A DNA stretch of 64,000 bases from Candidatus Spechtbacteria bacterium (GCA_016188605.1 JACPHP010000001.1:1327-65326), one strand, 5' to 3'; shown: positions 63,011 through 64,000, counted from the stretch's first letter. Notes: generated by a model not told the origin, from the letters alone. Numbers and translations: made by a program.

Positions 63011-64000
63011 TTATGCCTCTAAAATATCCCTACGTATTACTGAAACTAAGTTAATTACAAAGTGCAGATTATGAATCGTCGCCAGCCGATGGCCTAGAAT
63101 CTCGCCCACTTTTAATAAATGCGCCACGTACGCGCGAGAATAATTTGTGCAGGTATAACAGGCGCAACCAGGCTTGCCCTGAGCGTAGTCGAAGGGCTCA
63201 AGCGGCTTTTTATCAGTCGCGAATTTAGCATTGCGCAAGTTGATATTTCCTTTCTTTGTATAAATTGATCCATTGCGGGCAAGGCGCGTTGGCGCGACGC
63301 AATCAAACAAATCTACTCCCCGCTTAATCGCTGGCATGAAATCAACCGGGTCGCCGATGCCCAAAAGATGCCGCGGTTTATTATCTGGCAAATGCGGAAT
63401 TGTCCAATCAAGAATATTCCACATATCTTTCTTTGATTTGCCGAGCGAGCCGCCAATTCCAAATCCTTCAAATGGCAAGTCACCAATGAATTTTACGCTT
63501 TCTTCGCGCAAATCTTTGTATTCTCCGCCTTGCACAATGCCAAAAAGCGCTTGTGGCATTTTTGTTGCCGGACTTACTTTATTTTTTGCTTTAAGCGAGC
63601 GTATTGCCCATCTGTGCGTGCGTTCCATCGCGGTTTTGGTATATTCATAACTTGAAAGCGGCGAAGTGCATTCATCAAACGCAAACATAATATCCGCGCC
63701 GAGGTTTTGCTGGATGCGCAGGGAAATCTCCGGTGTCAGGCGGTGGCGCGAGCCATCAATATGAGAGACGAAATTAACGCCGTCTTCATCGATTGTCGTA
63801 AAAGATTTGTTGTCGGGGCTCGAGTTTTGTCGTTTCGTGGTGGTTGGACGAGGGTCTGGGCCACGAGACGACAAAACTCGAGCCCCTTCATCCGGAAAGA
63901 TATTAGCGATTTTTCCCACGCCGTGCTCAATGCCAAGGCCCAAGCTAAATGCCTGGAATCCTCCGCTGTCGGTTACCAATGGCCCTCGCCAATTCATAAA
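63011..64000 (-). CDS. tgt: queuine tRNA-ribosyltransferase, 5' end beyond window; contains a 24-codon in-frame palindromic insertion
   Basis: [17 protein letters not shown] and Zn motif [17 protein letters not shown]. The track Met at 63997 is internal, and in E. coli Tgt this motif sits near residue 100. Confidence 0.8.
63815..63886. mobile_element. 72-bp palindromic element (26-bp inverted repeats ggggctcgagttttgtcgtYtcgtgg) inserted in frame within tgt
   Basis: Seen directly. Encodes [23 protein letters not shown]. Length is a multiple of 3. Higher GC than the host gene. Confidence 0.65.

Follow-up and report, generated by a model that had tools for sequence, protein, structure and literature searches.

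An in-frame 72-nt palindrome in a variable loop of Tgt from a Candidatus Spechtbacteria bacterium, and other coding palindromes in the same genome

The tgt gene (queuine tRNA-ribosyltransferase) of a Candidatus Spechtbacteria bacterium contains a 72-nt palindrome that is real, in frame and lineage-specific, and that lies in a variable loop of the protein, in a part of the structural model with low confidence. Other in-frame palindromes and repeat families exist in the source genome and its relatives. The reading that we prefer, and hold tentatively, is that the tgt element is a translated but functionally passive insert of palindromic DNA, of the type of the Rickettsia RPEs, in a permissive loop of Tgt. 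By the window we mean the whole 64-kb stretch of DNA (64,000 nt) that was analysed, at one end of which the gene lies.

Structure of the palindrome

The gene, the element with its parts, and a second insert in the same gene are located as follows.

63011..64000, minus strand: tgt, queuine tRNA-ribosyltransferase; the 82 N-terminal codons fall outside the window; complete protein P0001, 410 aa
63815..63886, minus strand: 72-nt palindromic element, phase 0 in tgt; residues 120-143 of the 410-aa P0001 (24 aa)
63815..63840: arm 1, 26 nt, GGGGCTCGAGTTTTGTCGTTTCGTGG; downstream arm on the coding strand; encodes (T)TKRQNSSP
63841..63860: centre, 20 nt, non-palindromic; encodes roughly PDPRPT
63861..63886: arm 2, 26 nt, with one mismatch to arm 1; upstream arm on the coding strand; encodes GARVLSSRG
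63173..63196, minus strand: second lineage-specific insert in tgt, 24 nt, CCCTTCGACTACGCTCAGGGCAAG; encodes PFDYAQGK; directly before the zinc CxCxxC

The arms pair at 25 of 26 positions (96% complementary) across the 20-nt centre, to give 72 nt in total. A sequence-only reading made earlier on this DNA had described 26-bp near-perfect inverted repeats about a 20-bp centre at 63815-63886, and the arms are at exactly that place. It had also taken the element to be in frame with a length that is a multiple of three, and this agrees with the position of the 72 nt in phase 0 of the minus-strand tgt ORF. The peptide that it gave covers the same stretch, but is offset by a few residues from the program translation.

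As sense-strand RNA the element is predicted to fold at -50.4 kcal/mol, against a shuffle mean of -22.7 (z = -8.5), and none of 200 shuffles was as stable. Local G+C at the element is 54-57%, compared with 43% for the window. The element is free of stops in all six frames, but 12.8% of random palindromes with matched composition have the same property, and as it is thus weak evidence we make no use of it as an argument. Three Logan assemblies (L001-L003), independent and made from different runs, contain this DNA without any change, and an assembly artefact is for this reason very unlikely.

The host gene and its variable loop

The minus-strand ORF at 63011..63997, which is open at the window end, has PF01702 (TGT) as its sole Pfam match (E = 1.6e-100), and P0001 is annotated as Tgt of Candidatus Spechtbacteria bacterium (CPR/Patescibacteria). 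Comparison with the Tgt of Z. mobilis, for which there is a solved structure, gave an E value of 7e-103, with residues 2-102 and 147-409 of P0001 aligned. Residues 103-146 are thus extra, and fall between S112 and S113 of the Z. mobilis protein. P0001 retains the substrate-binding TDSGG motif, the conserved Asp of GVDLFDCV and the zinc ligands CxCxxC...H, and the invariant columns of the alignment are D92, S93, G94, G95, D311, D314, C360, C362, C365 and H391.

The extra segment has two parts. The first 16 residues are nearly invariant in the CPR and Chloroflexi-type Tgts retrieved, and are followed by a loop of very variable length that ends at a conserved IDxDGVxF block (IDEDGVNF in P0001). 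The loop has 13-56 residues with a mode of 16-17 in 102 homologues, and 32 in P0001. Both arms of the element are within this loop, which has no conservation across 120 homologues, and the element peptide was found in none of the 119 other homologues. In an AlphaFold2 model of P0001 (mean pLDDT 84) residues 102-145 score less than 50, in contrast to a confident prediction for the remainder of the barrel. Other CPR Tgts have unrelated repeat-like inserts in the same loop, for example LIRTNERITN and KFQISNKSQILNSKFKIQNS.

These data support much of what had been proposed from the sequence, namely a lineage-specific hydrophilic addition between conserved blocks of Tgt, tolerated as a surface loop; the low pLDDT beside a confident barrel and the length spread of 13-56 residues indicate that the loop is variable and probably disordered. 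The suggestion of an intein-less insertion hotspot is sound in so far as the loop is a hotspot for indels, with its range of lengths and the inserts of other CPR proteins. The comparison with inteins adds nothing, since 24 residues are too few for a splicing domain and TGT is the sole Pfam match. These 24 additional residues probably have no bearing on catalysis by Tgt.

A simple insertion fares less well. Removal of the element's 24 residues leaves a loop of 8, below the minimum of 13 for the 101 homologues, and a plain 72-nt insertion therefore needs an additional deletion, because the ancestral loop that it implies is shorter than that of every homologue.

The second insert in tgt, PFDYAQGK, was found in no other Tgt examined; it is a member, diverged in sequence, of a repeat family (family B) that is described below.

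Search for further copies

The earlier suggestion was that the element is a MITE, and other copies were looked for in the window and in several large collections. With up to 3 mismatches allowed, the arm pattern matched only the two arms of the element in the 64-kb window, where 0.00 matches were expected from 100 shuffles, so the window has no other copy of the 26-bp repeat. An 18-mer from the arm was scanned against 185,579 GTDB species-representative genomes and JGI metagenomes, and gave 11 GTDB and 16 JGI metagenome matches, all of them single and non-extending and with no inverted partner. Two scans of IMG/VR for the arm gave no matches, and a fuzzy search for the arm in all 382 kb of fetched loci found nothing beyond the seed matches of the 18-mer. 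At the protein level, a 30-residue peptide was searched exhaustively against 1.84 billion representative proteins and gave one borderline match, to a spurious ORF over a tandem repeat, and a concatenated six-frame peptide query against 5.8 billion proteins gave none, but this query also missed P0001 itself. There is thus no second copy in the window, GTDB, JGI or IMG/VR, with the source genome covered for the 64 kb of the window.

There is no direct repeat in the flanks (...TTGTTGTC / element / TTCATCCGG...) that would be a target-site duplication. No transposase was found among the ten window ORFs scanned, and a Y1 transposase was likewise not seen there. The whole element is an inverted repeat. 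Search for an empty site through the neighbouring hydrolase gene gave a sole extra contig, which ends short of the element. The name MITE is thus not supported for the element as found, since the searches gave neither a second copy nor a target-site duplication.

Four metagenome records (L024, L025, L026 and L030, from SDBU/SDBS) share 21-23 nt with the arm. In these the arm-identical stretch is the 3' half of a terminator-like hairpin in other organisms, and we judged the match to be coincidence. In the same records this hairpin, GGGGCTCGAGTTTTGTCGTTT, closes a conserved element of about 200 nt, apparently structured, which has no match in Rfam.

Other palindromes and repeat families in coding DNA

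The window has 19 inverted repeats in which 15 or more bases are paired, as against 0-1 per dinucleotide shuffle (n=10; about 0.1 per window expected). Three of the palindromes, in addition to that of tgt, are significant and in frame in intact housekeeping genes, and are listed here with two sites of family B.

14877..14918, minus strand: 42-bp perfect palindrome (21+21 nt, no loop) in fmt; in frame; encodes (L)QEGPTLRGGSVLPA; family A
28880..28917, plus strand: 38-bp palindrome (16-bp arms, one mismatch, 6-nt loop) in pyrG; in frame; encodes QEGRTLRGGSDPP; family A
47607..47639, minus strand: 33-bp perfect palindrome (16+1+16) in the DUF1611 gene; in frame; encodes SYVGYRIPHIR
28500..28519, plus strand: family B core TTCGACAAGCTCAGGGCAAG in pyrG, inside a clean 13-residue insert (STLSTSSGQG)
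42634..42653, plus strand: family B core in the opposite orientation, in ORF 42444..43757, where it is read LALSLSNG

Counting that of tgt, the window has four significant palindromes within genes, each of them in frame and without stops. Those of fmt (methionyl-tRNA formyltransferase) and pyrG (CTP synthase) share the core GACCCTCCGCGGAGGGTC, which has 3 matches in the window where 0.01 are expected; there is also an intergenic partial copy at 27342-27359. The peptides are QEGPTLRGGS in fmt and QEGRTLRGGS in pyrG, or QEGxTLRGGS in common. As these two palindromes are homologous, at least one palindrome family (family A) is dispersed. The DUF1611 palindrome, TCTTATGTGGGGTATC-G-GATACCCCACATAAGA, is near the N-terminus of its protein, and the DUF1611 orthologues in L038 and L039 have no long palindrome.

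Family B is found in pyrG, in ORF 42444..43757 and, diverged, in tgt (63173-63196), in three different frames or orientations. The 13-residue insert of pyrG that contains it is missing from 115 of 120 homologues. The 20-mer TTCGACAAGCTCAGGGCAAG is also present as an exact match in 15 IMG/VR contigs (L040-L054) of 54-70% G+C, sometimes in tandem; its surroundings there are unrelated, so that very different genomes share a motif of about 25 nt. We found no description of it in the literature searched.

Related Spechtbacteria have palindromes of the same general kind. In L038 one 35-bp in-frame palindrome (KLTGSDPVS) is present twice, at 1430-1464 and 1986-2020, in adjacent glycosyltransferase genes, and L039 has a 30-bp perfect in-frame palindrome at 3240-3269, also in a glycosyltransferase gene. 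The right arm of the latter, GAT CGT GGG TAT ATG GTC (DRGYMV), is homologous to GAT CGG CCT TAT ATG GAA (DRPYME) of L038, and the left arm is within an insertion specific to L039; comparison of the two sequences suggests an in-situ inverted duplication. Over the sequence examined there is roughly one in-frame palindrome or short repeat per 15 kb, and as both the window and related Spechtbacteria carry them, we regard them as a trait of these genomes.

The same loop in orthologues

The closest syntenic orthologue, L004, has 68% identity and retains the order tgt, hydrolase, Mur ligase. At 465-508, within the same loop of Tgt, it has a perfect palindrome of its own, AGGACGGTCGGGACGTCCTA-ACAC-TAGGACGTCCCGACCGTCCT, with 20-bp arms and a 4-nt loop (z = -9.3), which encodes TLGRSGRPNTRTSRPS and is unrelated in sequence to the window element. 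The ends of the L004 palindrome, AGGAsGGTCG, resemble family A. There is no hairpin in the loop of a third close relative (P0003, L005/L006), nor in the more distant Tgts examined (z -1.8 or weaker). Palindromy as a general trait of expanded Tgt loops was ruled out, as L007, L008, L036 and L037 have long loops without a hairpin.

Origin of the element

We suggest that the element is young, and is a passive or selfish passenger at the DNA level and not a functional protein module. Short repeats of about 25-72 bp, rich in G+C and palindromic or hairpin-forming, are in frame in housekeeping genes of the source genome and its relatives; the element would be one of these, and may have arrived in the way in which the multi-copy families spread, as RPEs do. 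The ribosome would read through it, to add a hydrophilic stretch rich in Ser, Arg, Pro and Thr; we infer that the element is translated, and that it is neutral for Tgt activity. The tgt copy would persist because its length is a multiple of three, it has no stop, and the loop, the most permissive of Tgt, is disordered, variable in length and far from the catalytic Asp and the zinc site. In favour of a passive insert are the in-frame palindromes of fmt, pyrG and DUF1611, the dispersed families A and B, the L004 palindrome in the same loop, and the palindromes of L038 and L039. Against it are the single copy, the lack of a target-site duplication and of a transposase in the scanned ORFs, and the implied ancestral loop of 8 residues.

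The single copy and the short ancestral loop fit better with a palindrome that arose in place with no mobile element involved, which is a strong rival, though one that we rate somewhat lower. By a template switch or by folding back, the nascent strand would during replication have taken an inverted copy of about 26 nt of the loop-coding DNA already there, in which case the arm CCACGAAACGACAAAACTCGAGCCCC (TTKRQNSSP) is the ancestral loop sequence and the other arm the new inverted copy, with only an in-frame outcome surviving. It fits with this that the element is a singleton in every collection searched, and that the net gain is about 15 residues or 45 nt (32 residues as against the mode of 16-17), which is equivalent to one arm plus the spacer and not to 72 nt. 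If the upstream arm and the centre are taken away, the 16-residue loop that remains matches EE-TSLGLRKSK-DKKS-L of P0005 in architecture and length. L039, with one palindrome arm homologous to ancestral L038 codons, is a precedent, and template switching has been discussed for the coding palindromes of Nematomorpha mitochondria (PMC6649704). However arm plus centre come to 46 nt, which is not a multiple of three, the 20-nt centre has no explained origin, and the arms are more G+C-rich than the loop DNA of relatives. The loop is also too variable to prove that either arm is homologous to ancestral sequence. Finally, duplication in place fails to explain the related palindromes of fmt and pyrG, or the family A-like ends of the L004 element, and because of these a spreading process exists in these genomes anyway.

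A broader proposal, which as it stands is unlikely, is that Spechtbacteria, and perhaps many CPR bacteria, have an undescribed class of perfect coding palindromes of about 30-72 bp, which colonise or arise in permissive loops of housekeeping genes and have their arms kept perfect by arm-to-arm (hairpin-templated) conversion. The Tgt palindromes of the window and of L004 would then be one ancient element evolving in concert. If so, orthologous loops would keep a palindrome while its sequence drifts freely, and this would be a bacterial counterpart of the coding palindromes of Nematomorpha mitochondria.

The pair of Tgt palindromes could also be taken to mean that it is the structure and not the sequence that is conserved, with a hairpin in tgt mRNA or a cruciform in the DNA having a function in ribosome slowing, in RNase III-dependent half-life or as a protein-binding site. 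Two syntenic orthologues do have very stable hairpins of unrelated sequence in the same place (z = -8.6 and -9.3), and by our estimate independent placement of palindromes, at a density of about one per 15 genes, would put a second one into this loop by chance in a few percent of cases. Selection for structure is nevertheless improbable. The P0003 loop (L005/L006) and the more distant Tgt loops examined have no hairpin, and the stems and loops differ between P0001 and L004 (26 and 20 bp, and 20 and 4 nt, respectively). In a functional RNA stem G-U pairs and mismatches are as a rule tolerated; the pairing here is perfect or close to perfect, which indicates recent origin or homogenisation at the DNA level. 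Similar palindromes are scattered in unrelated genes and missing in orthologues (pyrG and DUF1611 in L038 and L039), and no Rfam family reached its gathering score, the only hits being sub-threshold ones to microRNA precursor models.

It is very improbable that the element is untranslated, whether removed from the mRNA or bypassed by the ribosome in the manner of the Magnusiomyces "byp" elements or of the gap in T4 gene 60, an example of ribosomal bypassing. A very stable hairpin in coding sequence is indeed the type of structure used in programmed bypassing. However the flanks of the element have neither a stop codon nor a pair of take-off and landing codons, there is no match to an intron or ribozyme family in Rfam, and the four significant in-gene palindromes are all in frame and stop-free, which would not be needed if they were skipped. 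That the element arose as an artefact of assembly or of the library, for instance through a chimeric fold-back read, is scarcely credible, for while amplification chimeras can yield palindromes, the three assemblies are identical, the contig is present in further samples, the reading frame of an essential-looking gene is preserved, and there are comparable elements in other genomes from other projects.

In preferring a passive, translated insert for tgt we would stress that the genome-wide pattern of palindromes, if it holds up, matters more than the single element. The finding suggests that the streamlined genomes of CPR bacteria also carry several kinds of short palindromes and repeats within essential genes. 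If the pattern holds, such elements are a source of the variation in loop length in CPR proteins that is often noted as "CPR-specific insertions", and will need to be kept in mind in annotation and structure prediction for these proteins. They would also provide a natural system for study of the origin and persistence of perfect DNA palindromes in coding DNA.

Other features of the window

Several other repeats and features were observed in the window. There is a family of A+T-rich intergenic inverted repeats, ATCAACGAATAACGAAT...ATTCGTTATTCGTTGAT, at 2095-2180, 24176-24252, 29182-29272, 32946-33018, 36256-36336, 37497-37586 and 42369-42455. The inserts LIRTNERITN and LIRANKPITH in the Tgt loop of other CPR lineages look like translated repeats of the A+T-rich intergenic type. 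Another short repeat, the G+C-rich GGCTGATCCGCC(T/A)..GGCGG, is found in intergenic or leader regions at 27160-27300, 21364-21421, 45193-45245 and 10157-10192, where it folds into small hairpins.

The gene for tRNA-Lys(UUU) at 9907-9980 is inside a perfect 23-bp helix (9891-9994), by which the acceptor stem is lengthened by 16 bp. There is a repeat of about 16 nt of the tRNA-Lys D-arm region at about 9996-10010, and a small GIY-YIG ORF ends just upstream of the tRNA gene. At 6216-6900, adjoining tRNA-Thr (6049-6122), there is a stretch of about 700 bp with about 68% G+C (genome 43%) and a DUF5701-like ORF on the minus strand, which looks like foreign DNA.

Comparison with known systems

To our knowledge in-frame palindromes that are selfish or self-generated are textbook examples only for Rickettsia and a few mitochondria, and we found no report of in-gene palindromes of CPR bacteria in the searchable literature. 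There are several known systems with which the tgt element can be compared.

Quasipalindrome or template-switch mutation is an established replication-error mechanism in bacteria. It resembles the present case in giving perfect inverted repeats from neighbouring sequence with no mobile element, and fits the single copy and the net gain in length. It differs in that the documented events usually have arms of less than 26 bp, and it leaves related palindromes in different genes unexplained. Such mutations are discussed in PMC6649704.

The tgt element is similar to MITEs and to REP-type elements (ERIC, BOX, Correia, REP/BIME) in that all are short non-autonomous DNA that forms a hairpin. MITEs are at times found within genes, where they can produce in-frame fusions (PMC10969869). 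A MITE, however, is bounded by terminal inverted repeats, with a body that is not palindromic, and has target-site duplications, a high copy number and a related IS, features that the data do not show for the tgt element. The REP/BIME elements are extragenic, with an imperfect palindrome of about 35 nt and a RAYT, whereas the tgt element is intragenic with 26-bp arms.

In the mitochondria of Nematomorpha (2019, PMC6649704) there are coding palindromes of up to 284 bp, with both arms encoding conserved regions of the protein; the same paper cites the palindromic "byp" elements of Magnusiomyces mitochondria. The Nematomorpha palindromes are like those described here in being perfect or near-perfect inverted repeats in translated coding sequence, scattered, and gained or lost between relatives. 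In both cases so perfect a pairing suggests that the repeats are recent, or that one arm has been converted by the other, with template switching proposed as their source. They differ in that the tgt element is bacterial and not mitochondrial, and is in a non-conserved, disordered loop to which it adds length.

The closest parallel for a passive insert of this kind is with the RPEs (Ogata et al. 2000). In the summary given in PMC10969869 these are in-frame palindromic repeats in Rickettsia genes that are translated into additional peptide and are compatible with the protein fold, of about 100-150 bp and multi-copy, with a conserved peptide for each family and several families per genome. In the present case the host belongs to the Patescibacteria (CPR), there is no sequence similarity to RPEs, and the window element has 72 bp and is single copy so far; its companions have 25-42 bp, with families A and B being multi-copy. 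What the two systems have in common is the presence in a bacterium with a small genome of palindromic DNA repeats in unrelated housekeeping genes, in frame and compatible with the fold, and with several families per genome.
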